Assembly: GCA_003697105.1 (NCBI GenBank)
Contig: RFFQ01000013.1
Coordinates: forward strand, 61,902-81,901
Direction of reading: 5' to 3'
Length of the DNA stretch: 20,000 nt
Source: Gemmatimonadota bacterium
Lineage (GTDB): Bacteria > 4572-55 > J002
Part shown: positions 939-19,647 of the stretch, piece after piece
Layout: the number at the start of each line of letters is the position of its first letter
Numbering within the stretch: position 1 is the stretch's first letter
Notes under the pieces: generated by a model
What the model was told of the DNA's origin: nothing
The model's input: the letters and a program-made list of their open reading frames with translations, nothing else
Databases searched by the model: none
Position numbers and translations under genes: made by a program

Positions 939-1799
939 TTAGCACACCTGCTGGAAACATTCAACAATCTGCGGCAATACCTCACTACTCGGAGCGTGGA
1001 GAAAAAAGCCCTTAGGAGTTGCCAGTGCCAAACGGCTAAACACATTGGGTTCGATGTTCACATCGATAATGATCCCCCCGCGGTGATAAACCCGTTGCAC
1101 TACCTGATTCGGTAGATTCGTCGCCCCGGAGGTACCTACCACAAGAAGTAAATCCGTTTTAGTTGCTACCTGTAGGGAGCTTTCAAAGTGATAAAATTCT
1201 TCATTATAGTATTCATCAAACCAAAGGATATGAGGCCGTGTCATTGCACCACACCGGGGACACGTGAGCAACGCCCACTGCTCACTGGTCAAATCGCCAT
1301 TTCGTGGGATACCCGGCACAGCATCCGGGATGGGATATAATGCCGACGAGCATTCGTCCGCACAACGCATAAATTCGATGTCGCCATGAATGGGGTACGT
1401 CCGGTCTAGGCTATTCCCTGCCCGTAGGTGCAAGCCATCTACATTTTGGGTAATCAGTAAAAAGCGATTTTGAAAAAGGCGTTCCATTTGCACCAATGCC
1501 AGATGCCCGGCATTCGGCTCGGCTTGCCGGCAAACCCCTCGCCGGAACAGATACCACTTCCACACCTCACGGGGTTGCCGGGAAAACATCCGGTAAGTGG
1601 CGATTTCATGAGGTTGGTAATTTTTGGAACCAATCTGCCAGTAACCCTCTTTGCCGCGAAATGTCGGGATTCCACTTTCAGCAGAAATCCCAGCGCCGGT
1701 CAATACCGTGATCTGTCCAGCGGATTGGTAAAATTCAGTTAAAGTATCCATCTGTTTTGGGTCGAGCATTGTCTCATAATCCTTTTTTAGATGTGCCAT
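939..1799 (-). CDS. cobB: NAD-dependent protein deacylase, Sir2/sirtuin family
   Basis: GAGISAESGIPTFRG, TQNVDGLH, catalytic HG, Zn cysteines CADEC...CPRC, VGTSG and the terminal DVN motif. The start may be a downstream Met (MLDPKQ). Confidence 0.93.
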   Translation of the reverse strand: MAHLKKDYETMLDPKQMDTLTEFYQSAGQITVLTGAGISAESGIPTFRGKEGYWQIGSKNYQPHEIATYRMFSRQPREVWKWYLFRRGVCRQAEPNAGHLALVQMERLFQNRFLLITQNVDGLHLRAGNSLDRTYPIHGDIEFMRCADECSSALYPIPDAVPGIPRNGDLTSEQWALLTCPRCGAMTRPHILWFDEYYNEEFYHFESSLQVATKTDLLLVVGTSGATNLPNQVVQRVYHRGGIIIDVNIEPNVFSRLALATPKGFFLHAPSSEVLPQIVECFQQVC

Positions 1800-9556: not shown

Positions 9557-11770
9557 TTAAAAATTGATATTGATACCTAAGGTGGGCAGGCGGGGTAGCA
9601 TAGTTACATCGTCGTAGGTGGTTTCTTCGGTGCTGGTATCATACTGCCGGATATAGATATTTTCATGGTTGTAAATGTTAATAAGTTGGAGATATGGTTC
9701 GATACTCCACGTGGTGAAGTGCTTTGTCCAAAATAGTCCGATATCTAGGCGCTGGTAATCCGGCAAGCGGTGGCGGTTCTTTTCGCCGGGATAGGCGAGG
9801 TCAATAATACGTCCGGTACCGTCCATAATGGGACCGCGCCCACTCGATAAAGTGGTTGGTTGCCCAGAGCCATATTTGAAATTGATATTGATGCGCCAAC
9901 CCTTGCCAAGTTGATAATCCTGCATCAGCACCACGTGATGCCGCCGGTCATATTGGGGAGGGTACGCCTTGCCCTGATTATAATCATCAAATTGGCGAAT
10001 CGTTTTGCCCCAGGCATAACCGATCCAGCCCTCAAAACCTTGCCAGCGGTTCCGCAAATAGAAGTCAATACCGTAAGCGTTCCCTTCGCCGGTACGGAAG
10101 GCATCACCGAGTTCCGTATTATCGTTATCGATGGCGGAGCGTCCAAATTCATCACTAAATTCGACTAAGCGGGCATAGGGTTTATAGTAGGCTTCAATTT
10201 CCAGATCAAAATCGGCATAGGGACCGATCTTCACCCCGCAAATATAGTGGTCAGCAAAACCGGGTTTAAGGGTTTCATCCACCGGAAACCACGCATCTGC
10301 CGCCCCGCCGATCTCTTCTTCCGAAACCAGATTCAAAAATTGCCAGTAACGCCCATACGTAAGGTGGGTGGCAAGTTTATCTGTCCAGCGATATTCAGCC
10401 GAAATCCGGGGCGAAACGGTTAGATAATTACCCTCCGAATAATCGGACAAGCGCACGCCCGGTTGCAACCGTAACACGGGAGAAACTTGCCAGTTATCTT
10501 GAATATACGCGGCATGGTAAGTGCCCTCATAGCTAAATTTGATCTGATCATCGCTGGCGGCACGCAGAAATACAAAGTCCAACATCTTTGTCTCAAACCC
10601 AAAATCCAACACGTGCGCCGGCGATGGAGTATAGGACAAGTTGCCCTTAACGGACAGGTCATCAATTTTGTTGTAGGCTTTAAATTCGATGTTGGTCAAG
10701 CCAATAATATTGTCGGATTTAAACCGGCTACCTCCGAGAACAAAGTGAGAAAACAGACGGCTATTAAAGAGGTGCGTCCATTGGACACAACCATTTTGGT
10801 TCCCCCAATCAAGGGTCAGGTCAAGGGTTTCTTCATCCCATCTCAACCGGTCGTTACCCCCGTAATAGCTAAAACTCACCCGGTCTGTCGGGGAAATATC
10901 ATAGTTGAGACGCACATGCGCATCATAAAATTTATAGGGGAGATTCAAATTCAGGGCTTTAGCCAATTGCTCAATGTAGGTGTGCCGCCCAGAGACCATC
11001 CACGAGCCTTTTGCCCAGGGACCATCCATTGTCAAACTCGAACTGATCACACTCAAGCGGGTAACCCCTTGAAACTCTTTGCGGTTTCCTTCACGGTTAT
11101 AAACATTTAACAACGAAGAGAGCCGCCCACCATAGCGTGCCGGAAAGCCTCCCTTTTGTAATTCAACAGATTTGACGGCATCCACATTGAACGTACTAAA
11201 AAAGCCAAAAAGGTGGTTGGGATTGTACACATCAATGTCATCCAGTAAGATCAAATTCTGGTCAGCACTCCCCCCACGGACATACAATCCGGCGGAGAAA
11301 TCAGAGAGTGTGGCGACGCCGGGAAGGGCTTGTACGGCGCGAAAGAGGTCTGCCTCCACCACCTGTGTTACATTTTTCAGGTCGATGCGGCGCAGAGAAA
11401 TTTTACTGGGTGTAACCTCGTATGCCTCTTTATCGGCTTCCACCTCGACCGCCTCCATCGCAATCGCTTTCGGGGTCAGTTCCACGGACTCCACGCGATC
11501 TGCCGTATCCGGTAAGCTCACGATCATTGTATGAGGCAGATAACCGATATAACTCCAGACCAGCTCATACTCCCCAGCCGGGATACCGGTAATCACGTAG
11601 TACCCTTTTTCGTTGGTGATAGTGCCAAAACGGGTCTCTTTGAGGAACACATTTGCCCCATACAGACTTTCACCGTTGGTGGCATCCCGCACAAACCCGC
11701 TCACCGTTGCTCCAACCGTGACCGATACCGTCACCAGTATCCATACCCCCATCATCATCAACGTTCGCAT
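9557..11770 (-). CDS. TonB-dependent receptor with N-terminal carboxypeptidase-regulatory-like domain
   Basis: Signal peptide; VSGFVRDATNGESLYGANV...GTITNEKGYY domain; plug LPGV...GLYVRGGSADQNLILLD...KGGFPARYGGRLSS; C-terminal beta-strand ending in Phe (LGININF); GGAGG RBS. Confidence 0.93.
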   Translation of the reverse strand: MRTLMMMGVWILVTVSVTVGATVSGFVRDATNGESLYGANVFLKETRFGTITNEKGYYVITGIPAGEYELVWSYIGYLPHTMIVSLPDTADRVESVELTPKAIAMEAVEVEADKEAYEVTPSKISLRRIDLKNVTQVVEADLFRAVQALPGVATLSDFSAGLYVRGGSADQNLILLDDIDVYNPNHLFGFFSTFNVDAVKSVELQKGGFPARYGGRLSSLLNVYNREGNRKEFQGVTRLSVISSSLTMDGPWAKGSWMVSGRHTYIEQLAKALNLNLPYKFYDAHVRLNYDISPTDRVSFSYYGGNDRLRWDEETLDLTLDWGNQNGCVQWTHLFNSRLFSHFVLGGSRFKSDNIIGLTNIEFKAYNKIDDLSVKGNLSYTPSPAHVLDFGFETKMLDFVFLRAASDDQIKFSYEGTYHAAYIQDNWQVSPVLRLQPGVRLSDYSEGNYLTVSPRISAEYRWTDKLATHLTYGRYWQFLNLVSEEEIGGAADAWFPVDETLKPGFADHYICGVKIGPYADFDLEIEAYYKPYARLVEFSDEFGRSAIDNDNTELGDAFRTGEGNAYGIDFYLRNRWQGFEGWIGYAWGKTIRQFDDYNQGKAYPPQYDRRHHVVLMQDYQLGKGWRININFKYGSGQPTTLSSGRGPIMDGTGRIIDLAYPGEKNRHRLPDYQRLDIGLFWTKHFTTWSIEPYLQLINIYNHENIYIRQYDTSTEETTYDDVTMLPRLPTLGININF

Positions 11771-11870
11771 ACTTCCTCCATGTTCGGGATCAACATAATT
11801 CGGGAATAGTCGCCAATGTAATCCCTTCTACCCAAATTCGCAAGAACCGTCTTTTTCATAGAGTCTAACC

Positions 11871-11899
11871 TTGACAAAATTCTTCACAATACTTACTTT
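11871..11899 (+). promoter_or_regulatory. Sigma70-type promoter pointing into the intergenic hairpin
   Basis: TTGACA (11871-11876), 17-nt spacer, TACTTT (11894-11899, TAnnnT); no plus-strand CDS follows. Confidence 0.65.
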
Positions 11900-11905
11900 T
11901 TCAGT

Positions 11906-11980
11906 TAGAGGCAGATGGTTTGTTTTTTGGTTTAAGTTCCCTTACCCCCTCACTTAAATTGAAAAGCACGTCTGCCTCTA
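11906..11980 (+). ncRNA. Candidate small RNA: 29-bp hairpin with C-rich loop
   Basis: 11906-11917 pairs with 11969-11980 (12 bp) and 11921-11937 pairs with 11952-11968 (17 bp), with a 3-nt bulge; 5 G-U pairs that work only on the plus strand; loop UCCCUUACCCCCUC; begins about 7 nt after the -10 box. Confidence 0.65.
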
Positions 11981-12022
11981 TTTCTACACCGTGACTCCCA
12001 CCTTTCATACGATTTCCCTATG

Positions 12023-12044
12023 AAAAAACCCCCGTTGCGGGGGC
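12023..12044 (-). terminator. Rho-independent terminator of dxs
   Basis: Minus strand GCCCCCG-CAA-CGGGGG followed by TTTTTT, 44 bp after the dxs stop. Confidence 0.8.
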
Positions 12045-12088
12045 ATTTCAGCAGAATGCATTCCCGAATAAAAACAACTTGCACCGGT

Positions 12089-13975
12089 TTATGCCATCAT
12101 TCCGGTAGGTTTAAGCCGGTTCTGCAACTTTTGATCGACAAATTCGGCGATTTTCTCCGGCGATAAACCCAAATCGTGTAATAGTTCCTGACGGGTGCCG
12201 TGCTCAATATACCGGTCTGGCAGACCCAACTGGTAAAGTACAGCGGTTTGGATTTGCAAGTCGGTCATATGCTGGGCAACGGCGCTACCGAAGCCACCGA
12301 TTAATGATCCTTCTTCCAGCGTCACAATGACCTGATGATGGGTCAAAATCCGATCCAGCATACCAATATCCATGGGCTTCACAAACCGGCAGTTGACAAC
12401 GCCCACCTGGTATCCATTTTGGGCGAGTTTTTCGGCGGCTTCTTCGGCGCGCCAGACCATTGAGCCCACCGCCAACAACACGGCATCATCTCCGGAACGG
12501 AGTTCCTCCCAAGAGCCGACCGCGATTTTTTTTGGCGGGTTATCGGGGTGATACGCAATGGCGGACTCTTTGGGATAGCGCACCGCGAACGGTTTTCCTT
12601 CCTGCAAGCCAGTCCAGATCAGATCGCGCAATTCGTCGCCATCTTTGGGTGCGGAAATAATCATGTTGGGGATACAATTAAAATAGGAGAGGTCGTAACA
12701 CCCATGATGGGTGGGACCATCTTCGCCCGCTAAACCACCCCGATCCATCGCAAAGATCACTGGCAACTTTTGTAAAGCTACATCGTGAATAGCATGATCG
12801 TAAGCCCGTTGCAAAAAGGTCGAATAGATGGCGGCAACGGGTTTGAGTCCCCCGGCGGCTAAACCGGCGGCAAAGGTAACACCGTGCCCTTCGGCAATTC
12901 CCACGTCAAAAAATTGATCGGGTAGTTCTTCTCGAAATTTAACCAGACCGGTACCCTCGGTCATTGCGGCGGTAATCACTGCGATTTGGGGGTCGGCTTT
13001 GGCAAATCGGAGCATAATATCGGCAAAGACATTACTGTAACGCGGCACATCCGCACCTGCCTTTTTCGGGGCAGAGGGTTTGACCGCATGATATTTTACC
13101 GGATCATCTTCGGCCGGCTTCAAGCCGCGTCCTTTGCGGGTAAGGACATGTAACAAGATGGGTCCGTGCATGTTGTCGCGGATATTTTGCAGGATTTCCA
13201 CCAGATCAACCACATCATGCCCGTCAATGGGTCCGATATAGCGGAAACCGAGTTCTTCAAACATCACGCCGGGAGAGATCAGATTTTTCAGGCTTTCTTC
13301 CAAATTGCTCATCCAGGATTGTACCTTACTTTTCGAGACCAACCCGCCCACTTTCCATAAATCTTCGCGTAAACGATTATAAAGCGGATTGGTCACAATG
13401 TGGGATAGCGTTTTGGAGATCGCGCCCACATTCGGGGAAATTGACATCCCATTATCATTCAGAATCACCAGAAAGTTACGGTGCTTATGCCCGGCATTGT
13501 TGAGTGCCTCGTATGCCAAGCCACCCGTCATTGCGCCATCCCCAATAATGGAAACCACATGATGGTGTTGTCCTAATATATCCCGCGCCACAGCGAATCC
13601 CAAACCCGCTGAAATTGAGGTGCTCGCATGACCGGCACCAAACACATCGTATTCACTCTCCGAGCGTTTCAAAAAACCACTGATACCGCCATAGCGGCGG
13701 ATGGTTTTCAAGGCATCGCGCCGTCCGGTCAGGATTTTATGAACATACCCTTGATGCCCCACATCCCATACCAGTTTATCCTCTGGCGGGTTATAGACAT
13801 AGTTCAGCGCGACGGTGAGTTCGGTAACCCCCAAACTGGAGGCAAAATGACCGCCGATTTGCGGTACCACCTCAATAATGTAATTCCGCGCTTCTTGACA
13901 CAATTGGACTAACTCTTTAGAACTCAGGGTCTTCAAATCGGCAGGTGAATCGATCCGGTTGAGAATTTCATACAT
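12089..13975 (-). CDS. dxs: 1-deoxy-D-xylulose-5-phosphate synthase
   Basis: GGHFASSLG, WDVGHQGYVHKILTGRR, GAGHASTSISAG, TPP motif GDGAMTGGLAYEALNNAG...LNDN, DVGIAEGH, YSTFLQRAYD, DGPTHHG. Confidence 0.98.
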   Translation of the reverse strand: MYEILNRIDSPADLKTLSSKELVQLCQEARNYIIEVVPQIGGHFASSLGVTELTVALNYVYNPPEDKLVWDVGHQGYVHKILTGRRDALKTIRRYGGISGFLKRSESEYDVFGAGHASTSISAGLGFAVARDILGQHHHVVSIIGDGAMTGGLAYEALNNAGHKHRNFLVILNDNGMSISPNVGAISKTLSHIVTNPLYNRLREDLWKVGGLVSKSKVQSWMSNLEESLKNLISPGVMFEELGFRYIGPIDGHDVVDLVEILQNIRDNMHGPILLHVLTRKGRGLKPAEDDPVKYHAVKPSAPKKAGADVPRYSNVFADIMLRFAKADPQIAVITAAMTEGTGLVKFREELPDQFFDVGIAEGHGVTFAAGLAAGGLKPVAAIYSTFLQRAYDHAIHDVALQKLPVIFAMDRGGLAGEDGPTHHGCYDLSYFNCIPNMIISAPKDGDELRDLIWTGLQEGKPFAVRYPKESAIAYHPDNPPKKIAVGSWEELRSGDDAVLLAVGSMVWRAEEAAEKLAQNGYQVGVVNCRFVKPMDIGMLDRILTHHQVIVTLEEGSLIGGFGSAVAQHMTDLQIQTAVLYQLGLPDRYIEHGTRQELLHDLGLSPEKIAEFVDQKLQNRLKPTGMMA

Positions 13976-15757: not shown

Positions 15758-15832
15758 TTATCCCCGAACCGGTGAGAATTTCCATATCTCCTCCTTTCGC
15801 GGCACAAGAAGATTTGGGATAATAGTCATCAT
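15758..15832. repeat. Degenerate direct repeat, copy 1 (left boundary of the accessory island)
   Basis: TTATCCCCGAACCGGTGAGAATTTCCATATC...ACAAGAAGATTTGGGATAATAGTCATCAT; by manual alignment 67 of 75 positions match 16849-16927, plus one 4-nt indel. Confidence 0.9.
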
Positions 15833-16809
15833 CATATCTCCTGTGTTACGCGTATCTGTGGGGGGAAATTTTGCTTTAGCTGGTCACTAAGGGTGTTCCT
15901 TTCCCAAAAAACACCACCGGCATACCCTTGTATCGTTTGATCGGTTTCAGCGAGTTCTAATCTTTTCTGTGCCCAACAGCAATACTCTTTATTCAATTCA
16001 ACTCCAGAAAATCTTCTGTTTAATTTTTTAGCAACCACACAGGTTGTGCCACTCCCTAAAAACGGGTCAAAAATGAAATCGCCCTCCTTACTACTTGCCA
16101 GTACCAATTTGGCGATGAGCTTTTCTGGCTTCTGCGTTGGATGATCTGTATTCTCAGGCATTGACCAAAAAGGTACAGATATATCCGTCCATATATTTGA
16201 CGGATGTGTCAGCCGGTAATTTCCACTATCGCTTTCTATCCAATCCTTCGGTTTTCCATCCTGTGTTCGGTATGGCGCAATGACTCGTCGTTTTAGTTTT
16301 ACAGCATCTACATTAAAATAATACTCTTTTGAGAGAGTACAAAACCAAATATCCTCAGTATTATTCTTCCAGTTACGTTTAGCACCTCGACCCTTTTCTC
16401 GTTCCCAAGTAATTCTATTTTGAATGATAAATAACTCGTTTAGTATGGGCGCAACAATAAGCGATGTTTTCCAATCCGAGCAAACATAAATAGTTGCCTC
16501 CGGTTTCAAAATATGACGAATGGAATACACCATATTCCTAAACCAGTGTTGATATTCAGCGTGCTCCTGCTCCTTAAACAAATGACCATTATAGTTTTTT
16601 GAAAGGTTATATGGTGGATCCAGGATAAGCAGATCCACAAAGTTATCAGGAAGATTATGAGCAACCTCAAATAAATCATTATTTATAATACGCCCTTCAA
16701 TATCGGCAACATTGACGCGATTGTGTACCCTCAATAACATCTGGGAAAATGTAGCTAGTTCTTCGACAGTGCACGTAAGCGTTCTATTTCTCGGCGCCCT
16801 TCGTTTCAA
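15832..16809 (-). CDS. Site-specific DNA methyltransferase, N6-adenine/N4-cytosine, beta class
   Basis: Catalytic DPPY precedes HPTQKP and the SAM-binding DPFLGSGTT (beta order). Likely start TTG 16809 (LKRRAPRNRTL) 5 nt after GGAGGAGG. Visibly AT-richer than its neighbours. Confidence 0.93.
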   Translation of the reverse strand: MKRRAPRNRTLTCTVEELATFSQMLLRVHNRVNVADIEGRIINNDLFEVAHNLPDNFVDLLILDPPYNLSKNYNGHLFKEQEHAEYQHWFRNMVYSIRHILKPEATIYVCSDWKTSLIVAPILNELFIIQNRITWEREKGRGAKRNWKNNTEDIWFCTLSKEYYFNVDAVKLKRRVIAPYRTQDGKPKDWIESDSGNYRLTHPSNIWTDISVPFWSMPENTDHPTQKPEKLIAKLVLASSKEGDFIFDPFLGSGTTCVVAKKLNRRFSGVELNKEYCCWAQKRLELAETDQTIQGYAGGVFWERNTLSDQLKQNFPPQIRVTQEI

Positions 16810-16848
16810 TGCAACCTCCTCCCCCAATTTATGGGTGCGATTCGGGTG

Positions 16849-16927
16849 TTATCCCCGAACCGGTGATAATTTCCATATCATCTCCCTTCACGGCTGGAAC
16901 AAGAATATTCGGGATAATATTCATCAT
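16849..16927. repeat. Degenerate direct repeat, copy 2
   Basis: TTATCCCCGAACCGGTGATAATTTCCATATC...ACAAGAATATTCGGGATAATATTCATCAT; same orientation as 15758-15832. Confidence 0.9.
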
Positions 16928-16950
16928 TTTAATGTCCTGTATGAATGGCT

Positions 16951-16996
16951 GCGGAACGGCAAAGCTCACCTGCCGCAATGGGGCGCCTTGTTGCAT
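16951..16996 (-). mobile_element. Degenerate (internally deleted) integron attC-like site
   Basis: Minus strand ATGCAAC-AAGGCGC-CCCATTGCGGCAGGTGAGC-TTTGCC-GTTCCGC, starting 3 nt after the hsdM stop: AAC...GTT core ends and an L'-spacer-R'-like right half, but no left arm to pair with GCAGGTGAGC. Confidence 0.55.
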
Positions 16997-16999
16997 GAT

Positions 17000-18646
17000 T
17001 CACGGTTTATTTTCGGCGGGAAGTAGCGGCAAGCCCAATTCCCTGAGATAGGCGTTATGCCGTGATCGCGCCGCCTCTATTTGGCGTGTCAGCTCTGTAA
17101 TCTCGGTATGCACACTCCCCAAGTCGATCTCCGGTTCCGGCTTTGCCGTACTCACATAGCGCGAGATGTTGAGGTTGAAGTCGTTTTCCTCAATCTCCTC
17201 CATGATCACCCGGCGAGAGGCGAAAATATTACCGTTCTCCAGCTCCTCCCTGACCTCGCGGCGATGCTGATAGGTGTCCACGATTTTTTCAATATGCTCC
17301 GGCAACAGCACATTTTGCCGCTTGCTCGGGGCATAAAGCTCGGCGGCATTGATGAACAGCACGTCATCGGTGCGCTTGCACTTTTTCAGCACCAGAATAC
17401 AGACCGGAATGCCGGTGGAATAGAAGAGCTTGGCCGGCAGGCCAATAACGGTGTCGATGTTGCCGTCTTTGAGCAACTTGGTGCGGATCTTCTTCTCCGC
17501 ACCGCCACGGAACAGCACCCCGTGGGGCAGGATGATGGCCATGGTGCCGTCCTTGGCCAAAAAGTGGAAGCCATGCAGCAAAAAGGCAAAGTCCGCGGCG
17601 GACTTGGGGGCGAGCCCATAGTTCTTGAAGCGGAAATCCTTTGCCAGTTCCTCACCCGGTTTCCAGCGGTAGCTGAAGGGTGGATTGGCGACCACGGCAT
17701 CGAACTCGATCTTCTTGGCCGGGTTTTGCTCGCGCAGGATGTCCCAGTCGTTTACCAGGCTGTCGCCGTGGTGGATTTCGAACTCAGTGTCGCGCACGCC
17801 GTGCAGCAGCATGTTCATGCGCGCCAAGTTGTAGGTGGTGATGTTCTTCTCCTGCCCATAGAGCTTGCCAATGCCGTGCTTGCCCATGTGCCGCCGCACG
17901 TTTAGCAGCAGCGAGCCCGAGCCGCAGGCAAAGTCATAAACGCGATTGAGTTTTTCCCGCTTGCCGGCAGCCGGGTCCTGGCAGTCCAGGATCACGATGC
18001 CGGAGAGGATGCTGGAGATCTGCTGCGGGGTGTAGAACTCGCCCGCCTTCTTGCCGCTACCGGCCGCGAACTGGCCAATCAGGTACTCGTAGGCGTCGCC
18101 CAGCAGATCGCGGCCGCTGGGGAACTCCGCTAGCCCCTCGGCGATCTTCTGGATGATGGTGCAGAGCCGCGCGTTGCGCTGGGTGTAGTTCTTGCCGAGC
18201 TTATCGGAGTCGAGGTTGATCTCGGAGAACAACCCCCGGAAGCTGCTGGCAAAAGACTCGTTTTCGATGAACTTGAAGCCCTTTTGCAGCGTGTGCAGCA
18301 GCTCGTCGTTCTGGGTGCGCGCCTGCTCTGCGATGCTGCTCCAGAGATATTCCGGCTTGATGATGTAGTGCACTCTGCGGCGCATCATCGTCTCGAATTC
18401 CTCAATGTCCTCCGGGTTCTGCTCGTACCACACCGCCAGCGGCGAACGGCGGTCATCCTCTGGCAGTTCAGGCCAGTCGGCGCCCAGCTCGCTCTTCGCG
18501 GCATCCTCGTAGTTGTCCGACAGGTAACGCAAGAACAGGAACGAGAGCATATAGTCGCGAAAATCGTCGGCGTTCATCGCGCCGCGCAATTCGTCGGCGA
18601 TGGCCCAGAGGGTTTTGCCCAGTTGTGTTTGATCTTGTTGGGTCAT
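17000..18646 (-). CDS. hsdM: Type I restriction-modification system methyltransferase subunit
   Basis: LWAIADELRGAM, LGDAYEYLIGQFAAGSGKKAGEFYTP, DFACGSGSLL, NPPF, ILPHGVLFRGG, FNLNISRYV. Confidence 0.97.
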   Translation of the reverse strand: MTQQDQTQLGKTLWAIADELRGAMNADDFRDYMLSFLFLRYLSDNYEDAAKSELGADWPELPEDDRRSPLAVWYEQNPEDIEEFETMMRRRVHYIIKPEYLWSSIAEQARTQNDELLHTLQKGFKFIENESFASSFRGLFSEINLDSDKLGKNYTQRNARLCTIIQKIAEGLAEFPSGRDLLGDAYEYLIGQFAAGSGKKAGEFYTPQQISSILSGIVILDCQDPAAGKREKLNRVYDFACGSGSLLLNVRRHMGKHGIGKLYGQEKNITTYNLARMNMLLHGVRDTEFEIHHGDSLVNDWDILREQNPAKKIEFDAVVANPPFSYRWKPGEELAKDFRFKNYGLAPKSAADFAFLLHGFHFLAKDGTMAIILPHGVLFRGGAEKKIRTKLLKDGNIDTVIGLPAKLFYSTGIPVCILVLKKCKRTDDVLFINAAELYAPSKRQNVLLPEHIEKIVDTYQHRREVREELENGNIFASRRVIMEEIEENDFNLNISRYVSTAKPEPEIDLGSVHTEITELTRQIEAARSRHNAYLRELGLPLLPAENKP

Positions 18647-19647
18647 GGGGTCTCCTTCTGGTTTTGTGCGAGCCGCCGGCCTGCCGGCGTCACGCGATAT
18701 TGCTGGGTCGGGCTGCGGGGGCGATCCGGCTGGATCATCTCTACCAGCCCCGCAGCCATCGCCGGCTTCAGATAATGCTGGCGGAAATGCTTGGCATCCT
18801 TCAATCCCAACGCCTGCATCAGAGCCTCGCGCCCCATCGGTTTATCGAGCACAGCCAGCAGGCGCACTACTTGGGGGGTTACTTCCGGGGTTACTTGGGG
18901 GGTATTAACCTGGCAGGCCGCTAGAATGTGCTCCAGCATGAACTGGATGAATGGGGCGCTATCAGTCTGTTCCGTGCTCTCGGCAATGGCCTGATAGTAG
19001 TCCGCCTGATGGGCATGGACCAGACTCTCTACCGGTAGATCGGCCAGCACGGGCCGCCAGCGGCTCAGGATCAGGGTCTGCCACAAGCGGCCCAGGCGGC
19101 CATTGCCGTCAGCAAAAGGGTGAATAAACTCAAACTCATAATGAAACACCGCACCGGCGATCAGCGGGTGTTCCTCGCAGGTCGCCAGCCAGTCCAGCAG
19201 ATCGGCCATCAGCTCCGGCACCCGCTTCGCAGGGGGCGCCATGTGGATGACCTGCTCGCCCTGCATCACACCCACGCCGCCCGAACGGTAGCGACCCGCC
19301 TCCTCCAGCAGCCCGGCCATCAGGATGCCGTGCGCTTCCAGCAGATCGGCCTCGCGCTCGGGCCGCCAGTGGTCCAGCCGCTCATAGGCAGACAGGGCAT
19401 TGCGTACCTCCTGAATCTCGCGCGGGGGCGCAATCACCAACTTGCCCTCCACAATGGCGGTGATCTGTTCCTCGCTGAGGGTGTTGCCCTCGATGGCCAG
19501 CGAACCCTGAATAGTCCGGATGCGATTAGCGCGGCGCAGACGCAGCCTGTCCTCACTTGCTAGCGTTAACTGGCCCACACGCTCGGCAATCTCCGCCACC
19601 AGAGAAACGATGCCCGGGGTGAGCGTGTAAGGCGGTCGGGTAGCCAT
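18643..19647 (-). CDS. Fic-domain protein (class II-like) with C-terminal helix-turn-helix
   Basis: Canonical HPFADGNGRLGR; N-terminal inhibitory-type motif SLAIEGN; TPQVTPEVTPQV linker; HFRQHYLKPA...PDRPRSPTQQY C-terminal domain; ATGA overlap with hsdM. Confidence 0.92.
   Translation of the reverse strand: MATRPPYTLTPGIVSLVAEIAERVGQLTLASEDRLRLRRANRIRTIQGSLAIEGNTLSEEQITAIVEGKLVIAPPREIQEVRNALSAYERLDHWRPEREADLLEAHGILMAGLLEEAGRYRSGGVGVMQGEQVIHMAPPAKRVPELMADLLDWLATCEEHPLIAGAVFHYEFEFIHPFADGNGRLGRLWQTLILSRWRPVLADLPVESLVHAHQADYYQAIAESTEQTDSAPFIQFMLEHILAACQVNTPQVTPEVTPQVVRLLAVLDKPMGREALMQALGLKDAKHFRQHYLKPAMAAGLVEMIQPDRPRSPTQQYRVTPAGRRLAQNQKETP

Follow-up and report, generated by a model that had tools for sequence, protein, structure and literature searches.

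The window analysed here is a stretch of 20,000 nucleotides, the final 20 kb of contig RFFQ01000013.1 (C186) of an uncultured hot-spring Gemmatimonadota bacterium whose genome (G000) comprises 4.18 Mb in 199 contigs and is 96.85% complete. Three DNA runs from one hot-spring metagenome study, and no RNA run, are listed for the stretch; two of the three contain it. The subject is a candidate small RNA on the plus strand, consisting of a long bulged hairpin preceded by the promoter words TTGACA-17-TACTTT. It is located within a 318-nt gap (11771-12088) between the stop of dxs and the start of a gene for a TonB-dependent receptor. The features of the locus, numbered from the first letter of the window, are as follows.

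11906-11980, plus strand: bulged hairpin of 75 nt that starts at the predicted +1 (base-by-base reading and RNAfold)
11871-11876, plus strand: -35 hexamer TTGACA, with C before and AAAAT after it; the cTTGACA word is as upstream of many tRNA genes of this genome
11894-11899, plus strand: -10 hexamer TACTTT, separated from the -35 hexamer by a 17-nt spacer; three of six positions match TATAAT
11981-12002, plus strand: C-rich, G-poor linker UUUCUACACCGUGACUCCCACC (fold and word counts)
12003-12025, plus strand: 7-bp hairpin UUUCAUA/UAUGAAA with loop CGAUUUCCC, in the minimum free energy (MFE) structure at 37 °C and gone from it at 70 °C
12044-12028, minus strand: G+C-rich hairpin of seven pairs, six of them G-C, followed by UUUUUU; intrinsic terminator of dxs (terminator scan)
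11815-11843, minus strand: candidate receptor promoter TTGCGA-17-TACATT, proposed from its consensus match and divergent from the plus-strand promoter words
12089-13975, minus strand: dxs, for 1-deoxy-D-xylulose-5-phosphate synthase (Pfam DXP_synthase_N, E 4e-117), convergent with the candidate RNA
9557-11770, minus strand: gene for a TonB-dependent receptor (Pfam CarbopepD_reg, Plug and barrel), divergent from the candidate RNA

Every open reading frame (ORF) of at least 100 amino acids with a Pfam match in the window is on the minus strand, so the initial annotation was fair in calling the candidate the only credible plus-strand unit. There is no credible plus-strand ORF downstream of the promoter words. 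A six-codon mini-ORF (ATG GTT TGT TTT TTG GTT TAA, 11915-11935, plus strand) falls within the hairpin's 5′ arm and has GAGG 3 nt ahead of its ATG; it is probably due to chance.

Structure and strand preference of the hairpin

The hairpin was read base by base, and RNAfold returned the same structure; both agree with the 12 bp, 3-nt bulge, 17 bp and loop of the initial annotation. The lower stem pairs 11906-11917 with 11969-11980 (12 pairs, one U.G), the GUU bulge occupies 11918-11920 and the upper stem pairs 11921-11937 with 11952-11968 (17 pairs, four G.U). These close a 14-nt loop, UCCCUUACCCCCUC (11938-11951), in which nine bases are C. The 29 pairs comprise 24 Watson-Crick and five G.U pairs; as had been noted, each of the five is a G.U pair when read on the plus strand, and the helix is otherwise free of mismatches. 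Folding of 11900-12050 as plus-strand RNA gives an MFE of -49.2 kcal/mol (z = -5.8), with none of 200 dinucleotide shuffles folding as well. For the minus strand of the full 318-nt gap, z is -1.4. Taken alone, the hairpin is about 9 kcal/mol more stable on the plus than on the minus strand at 37 °C (-32.1 versus -22.9 kcal/mol) and stays ahead at 70 °C (-10.3 versus -5.1 kcal/mol). In silico, the plus-strand form lasts to 70-80 °C and the minus-strand form retains the outer stem alone.

The orientation of the G.U pairs was compared with all inverted repeats of the genome having a 9-bp seed, scoring the first non-Watson-Crick position beside a run of at least nine pairs. This yielded 2096 non-wobble, 569 plus-strand wobble and 567 minus-strand wobble positions. 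Given these counts, five plus-strand wobbles out of five are unlikely; the chance would be about 0.176^5 under a random-flank null, or 1 in 16 under a null that allows transitions only. One-sided wobble is seen in 5 of the 39 genome helices with at least four wobble-type positions. The most fitting reading is a structure of plus-strand RNA, in line with the earlier preference for selection on an RNA rather than a DNA palindrome.

The hairpin is present in one copy in the genome, both by BLAST and with a covariance model of the hairpin (R1). The assembly of one run (X2) breaks at its 3′ end, one contig stopping at 11983 and the next beginning at 11980, most likely an assembler artefact at the inverted repeat. 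Ranking of 110-nt windows by raw MFE gave no useful result because G+C-rich coding DNA dominates. Downstream of the long hairpin, the second small hairpin described previously was recovered in the MFE structure. The positions left unpaired in the MFE structure of the 147-nt RNA number 55, of which 23 are C and three are G. TCCC words are at 11938, 11996 and 12015; the loop holds CCC and CCCCC, and further CCC words are at 11997 and 12016.

Promoter words and a census of the genome

The -10 hexamer ends 6 nt ahead of the first paired base, with a predicted start near 11906. A generic promoter scan did not list TTGACA-17-TACTTT at 11871-11899, because of the limited agreement of TACTTT with TATAAT. 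The regions upstream of the tRNA and tmRNA genes of this genome repeatedly show cTTGACA, a spacer of 17-18 nt and TAnnnT, with TACTTT as the -10 hexamer in two of them; the 6S RNA gene also has TTGACA upstream. The exact pattern TTGACA-N17-TAnnnT occurs at 298 sites in the genome. As many as 233 are intergenic, that is, outside crude ORF calls (2,989 ORFs, 90.3% coverage), although intergenic DNA makes up about 10% of the genome. By comparison, each of twelve control spacings has 4-17 intergenic sites (about 11), a spacer of 16 gives 47 sites (19 intergenic) and a spacer of 18 gives 79 (52 intergenic). The 233 intergenic sites face a same-strand ORF (209, median distance 57 nt), a tRNA or tmRNA gene (14), a contig end (4) or the end of a convergent gene (6, here called orphans). 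TACTTT serves as the -10 hexamer in 8 of the 223 gene- or tRNA-linked sites.

The site at 11871-11899 thus shows the sigma-70-type pattern of this genome, TTGACA, a 17-nt spacer and TAnnnT. Judged on the motif alone, there are roughly even odds that it is a promoter. Its position relative to the helix raises these odds: estimated from the frequency of chance sites in intergenic DNA, a perfect -35 hexamer at optimal spacing would end a few bases before a given helix by chance with a probability of some 1e-4 to 1e-3. With -32.7 kcal/mol, the leading 85 nt of the predicted transcript rank third in stability among 232 (mean -14.3, standard deviation 6.0). The other top ranks include four tRNA transcripts and two other orphan units besides ordinary gene-linked sites.

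The context of the sites was scored with a position weight matrix built from the non-fixed positions of the 223 linked sites; an upstream-only score omits the transcribed side, which the hairpin constrains. Scores of 3.5-6.9 are reached by four of the six orphans, two of these having short ORFs downstream, and the candidate site and an orphan on contig C140 score low. Orphan sites without a downstream gene are located on C49 (24107-24250, plus strand; locus L114), C6 (37579-37607, minus strand) and C140 (17027-17055, minus strand). The C49 unit has a promoter context of 6.2 bits, a clean 5′ hairpin, a single-stranded CU-rich linker (UUUCUCCUUUC) and a clear terminator followed by U7. We regard it as a better small-RNA candidate than the hairpin at 11906-11980 because of its strong promoter context, 5′ hairpin, single-stranded stretch and clear terminator. 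An Rfam search of the C49, C6 and C140 units gave no match, the best being STnc390 on C140 (26 bits, cut-off 50).

Points against a small RNA and alternative explanations

A number of observations weigh against a small RNA gene at this position. The full flank score of the promoter site is -6.4 bits, the 0.4th percentile of the 223 linked sites, and 89% of 65 sites located in coding sequence outscore it. Its upstream-only score is -2.54 bits, the 6th percentile (mean 3.26, standard deviation 3.39), and 3 of 18 chance-type orphan sites at the control spacings score equally high. The site has neither an A/T-rich tract upstream of the -35 hexamer nor the T-rich bases and G before the -10 hexamer, and it carries a C at a flank position that is 94% A/T in the linked sites. 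Chance would supply 1.5 of the six orphans (18 over the twelve control spacings), and the two low-scoring orphans are about the number of chance sites expected. The claim of an own promoter is therefore retained as far as the words go, these being of the type used before tRNA, tmRNA and 6S genes; their flanks and the expected number of chance orphans speak against it.

The C-rich words fare similarly. The further UCCC words pointed out earlier, at ~11996 and in the region of the small hairpin, are present, but at least three TCCC words occur in 80 of 500 dinucleotide shuffles, so they are not enriched. The CCC is fully unpaired in the MFE structure for one of the three TCCC words, and among 9,749 intergenic windows 14% have a C/G skew at least as large. 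CCUCC does not occur in the loop, whose complements are GAGGGGG and AAGGGA and not GGAGG. Near 2,921 gene starts, 35 loop sites at or below -18 kcal/mol are predicted, against 18-66 for eight shuffled loops. The best loop duplex (-24.7 kcal/mol, with a G-rich site before a gene on C185) compares with -22.6 to -26.6 kcal/mol for the same shuffled loops. The target prediction was rejected as uninformative, since it did no better than shuffled loops. The loop seed proposed in the initial annotation for a trans-acting anti-Shine-Dalgarno regulator thus gains no statistical support.

No canonical plus-strand intrinsic terminator was called anywhere in 11000-13000, so the 3′ ends considered for the candidate RNA are putative. 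After the long hairpin there is just UAUUUCU, at the start of the linker, which could act as a weak U-tract. The hairpin at 12028-12044 is listed as a terminator on the minus strand only, with just CAUUUC after 12044 on the plus strand; at neither place is a G+C-rich stem followed by a U-tract. It is possible that the back of the dxs terminator provides a weak 3′ end for an RNA of ~140 nt. Neither of the lengths suggested before, ~75 nt and ~140 nt, has a called plus-strand terminator. The C-rich, G-poor linker could equally, we presume, be a Rho-entry-like stretch.

The search for relatives covered 40 genomes, two of the same class (G001 and G002) and 38 of the same domain only. BLAST of the gap against them returned only chance matches of 16-34 nt (best E 0.012). 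R1 matches only the element itself in G000, G001 and G002, and has no match in a set of 80 dxs loci from metagenomes (460,515 bases in all), where the best Dxs relatives are just 47-60% identical; the dxs-adjacent gaps thus gave none of the homologues hoped for. In a genome-contig collection, the outer-stem pattern has no match and the loop 18-mer has six, in unrelated taxa and with the R1 fit confined to the loop; the sole longer R1 match at these places (10.2 bits, E 0.12) is on the opposite strand. The loop 22-mer has no match in viral contigs, and plasmid and phage collections hold no match to the hairpin. For the closest receptor orthologue (in G002, at 51% identity), the gap upstream is 110 nt long, has a different gene behind it and contains no hairpin. 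G001 and G002 contain no recognisable true dxs, the transketolase-like best matches having 25-29% identity over part of the protein; these organisms may make isoprenoid precursors by another route, or dxs may be unassembled. The contigs of the two runs are from the same strain (they differ at seven single bases across 4.5 kb, one of these being 12081 and none falling within 11871-12050), and therefore offer no covariation signal. By these sequence comparisons the element is a single-copy orphan. That no conservation of loop and stem was found is mostly due to a lack of relatives, the nearest genomes being of the same class only and without true dxs.

The low flank scores, the orphan sites expected by chance and the lack of conservation in everything searched would all suit a DNA-level palindrome with chance promoter words and no RNA function, either a local inverted duplication or a solitary relic of the miniature inverted-repeat transposable element (MITE) type. 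Such a relic would have a 10-12-bp terminal inverted repeat with a TA flank on each side, and TA does flank the helix on both sides. Decay of a palindrome should, however, add non-wobble and minus-strand wobble mismatches, where five out of five are plus-strand G.U. The element occurs once in the genome and was found in none of the 40 relatives, nor in plasmids, phages or viral contigs, and the perfect -35 hexamer with 17-nt spacing ending 6 nt before the helix would be improbable by chance, as estimated above. We consider this explanation unlikely.

Rather than in trans on ribosome-binding sites, the plus-strand RNA might act in cis, antisense to dxs read-through transcripts or the dxs 3′ end, either as an RNA of the RNA-OUT/CopA type or as a longer antisense RNA with a protective 5′ hairpin. 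Its anatomy fits (one long stem with G.U pairs, a bulge and a fairly large loop); the unit runs towards dxs and extends over the dxs terminator, and the trans-target scan was uninformative. As the scan of 11000-13000 gave no strong plus-strand terminator, transcription may continue antisense into dxs. On the other hand, the apparent strength of the dxs terminator leaves little read-through RNA to be expected; there are no minus-strand promoter words upstream of the hairpin, and the resemblance to RNA-OUT and CopA is a presumed one. A role in cis is decidedly improbable.

Least probable is a minus-strand or double-stranded DNA element, such as a further barrier or insulator after the dxs terminator, a portion of a long receptor leader, or an operator for a regulator of the divergent receptor promoter. 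The hairpin has the dxs terminator on one side and candidate promoters of the receptor gene on the other, its outer 10-11 pairs still form in minus-strand RNA, and the minus-strand loops read GGGA (presumably resembling CsrA sites). However, the minus-strand fold is no better than shuffles (z = -1.4) with the upper stem lost, no U-tract follows the hairpin on that strand, no CsrA gene was found in the genome and the receptor orthologue in G002 has no hairpin.

Known families were also considered. An Rfam covariance search of the window gave no match at gathering score, in keeping with the earlier remark that it was not recognised as a named Rfam family; asR3, RNAI, SurC, MIR2646 and others, returned at E up to 10 for 11700-12200, are chance-level matches far below their cut-offs. 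The RsaE/RoxS model (RF01820) has no match in the window (gathering score), at 11700-12200 (E up to 10) or in the whole genome (E up to 1). The 6C RNA model (RF01066) has none at the locus, its sole genome match being a weak one on C56 (24.9 bits, cut-off 47). The cuckoo RNA family was rejected because its defining loop motif, CCUCCUCCC, is absent from the loop of this 75-nt hairpin. SRP RNA and 6S RNA are located elsewhere in the genome (C54 and C165). For a MITE or repetitive extragenic palindromic (REP) repeat, many copies would be expected and one was found. Integron attC sites have R″ and R′ boxes (RYYYAAC ... GTTRRRY), extrahelical bases and an unpaired central spacer, and they are located at a cassette boundary. 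On reading, the hairpin has GTTAGAG at its 5′ side, and its 3′ side ends CCTCTATT with no matching AAC; it has a single one-sided 3-nt bulge, neither neighbour (dxs, receptor) resembles cassette cargo, and no integrase is present among the 13 window ORFs scanned against Pfam. Regulation by iron through a Fur box was likewise rejected, as the best match to the classical box is 11/19 and 43% of 2,076 intergenic windows match as well.

Elsewhere in the genome, a multi-copy perfect REP-type palindrome (GGTAGAGACGTTGCA...TGCAACGTCTCTACC) is found on several contigs (C185 ~10997, C131 ~17290 and C24 ~41751). Its first bases resemble the outer stem of the candidate, and R1 draws no link between them. 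Long palindromic arrays of TTAGGGA-like heptamers occur on C95 (~6965) and C150 (~14498). In the window, the receptor gene has GGAGGA 6 nt 5′ of its ATG by sequence reading and is followed by a DUF4249 gene. At 15832-19647 and 939-1799 (minus strand), the window also contains genes for an N6/N4 DNA methylase, an HsdM-type methylase, a Fic/DOC protein and, farther off, a SIR2-family protein, which look like a restriction-modification or defence neighbourhood.

Proposed mode of action and comparison with known RNAs

We favour a lineage-specific, Hfq-independent small RNA gene on the plus strand, a reading that we hold to be evenly balanced between acceptance and doubt. As regards the RNA itself, we lean slightly towards a discrete plus-strand transcript being made. 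From the observed structure, strand bias and promoter words, we infer the transcription, 3′ end and mode of action as follows. Transcription by RNA polymerase carrying the housekeeping sigma factor would begin near 11906, directed by TTGACA-17-TACTTT. The leading 75 nt would fold into the long bulged hairpin, which would guard the 5′ end and present the 14-nt C-rich loop. The 3′ end of the RNA would be either in the U-rich stretch past the hairpin, for a length of ~80 nt, or on the reverse side of the dxs terminator, for ~140 nt. In what we see as the likeliest mode of action, the loop would base-pair, free of a chaperone, with G-rich sequences such as GAGGG-type ribosome-binding sites, and the C-rich linker and second loop may also pair. 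Action by loop pairing with G-rich sites is, overall, a tentative proposal that we think more probably wrong than right. No gene for Hfq and none for CsrA was found in the genome at its 96.85% completeness, which fits a chaperone-independent RNA with a C-rich loop, as in 6C and RoxS.

In its boldest form, the proposal is that the element is the founding member of a new family of chaperone-independent small RNAs, with a thermostable 75-nt hairpin, a housekeeping-type promoter and a loop that would silence mRNAs with G-rich ribosome-binding sites. It would then be one of a few orphan units of promoter plus structure (with those on C49, C6 and C140) that form an undescribed riboregulatory layer; this we regard as doubtful. 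If real, it would be one of the earliest regulatory RNAs to be proposed for a poorly sampled, deeply branching hot-spring lineage of which hardly any relatives have been sequenced. Candidate small RNAs without expression or conservation data are common, and the finding is therefore of modest weight. The promoter census is a cheap route to further small-RNA candidates in this genome, with six of its 233 intergenic sites having no gene downstream.

RNA-OUT of IS10 and CopA of plasmid R1 are RNAs of ~70-90 nt with one long bulged stem and their own promoter at the base of the stem. The candidate resembles them, as they are generally known, in its single long bulged stem starting at the predicted +1. 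Both of these lie opposite their target gene and overlap it, whereas no overlapping minus-strand transcript is evident for the candidate, and the Pfam scan of the window ORFs gave no mobile or plasmid genes near it.

It is to the RsaE/RoxS, 6C and cuckoo RNAs that the proposed mode of action is likened. RoxS/RsaE base-pair by way of C-rich regions with Shine-Dalgarno sequences rich in G, thereby blocking initiation (PMC4409812). Like RsaE/RoxS, FsrA and CsfG of the Bacillota (Staphylococcus, Bacillus), the candidate would be a small RNA with its own, here predicted, promoter and with C-runs in predicted unpaired regions. Unlike RsaE/RoxS, it is one long 29-bp hairpin from another lineage, and its C-rich words do not exceed those of shuffles. 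In the cuckoo (CcsR/RSs0680) RNAs of Alphaproteobacteria, CCUCCUCCC is located in the loops of two to four adjacent hairpins of 24-50 nt, the stems vary freely and the loops carry the anti-Shine-Dalgarno-like C/U-rich motif (PMC4615179). The candidate shares a hairpin loop rich in C, but has one 75-nt and one 23-nt hairpin. The C-rich loops of 6C RNA of Actinobacteria bind G-rich unpaired mRNA sites without a chaperone (PMC6486639). Both RNAs have a C-rich hairpin loop, whereas 6C has two such loops on short stems and is highly conserved and the candidate is an orphan. The candidate is of an ordinary kind, a putative small RNA with a C-rich loop, which, if real, would found its own family. The C-rich-loop seeds of Bacillota, Actinobacteria and Alphaproteobacteria would then recur in an organism without Hfq or CsrA.

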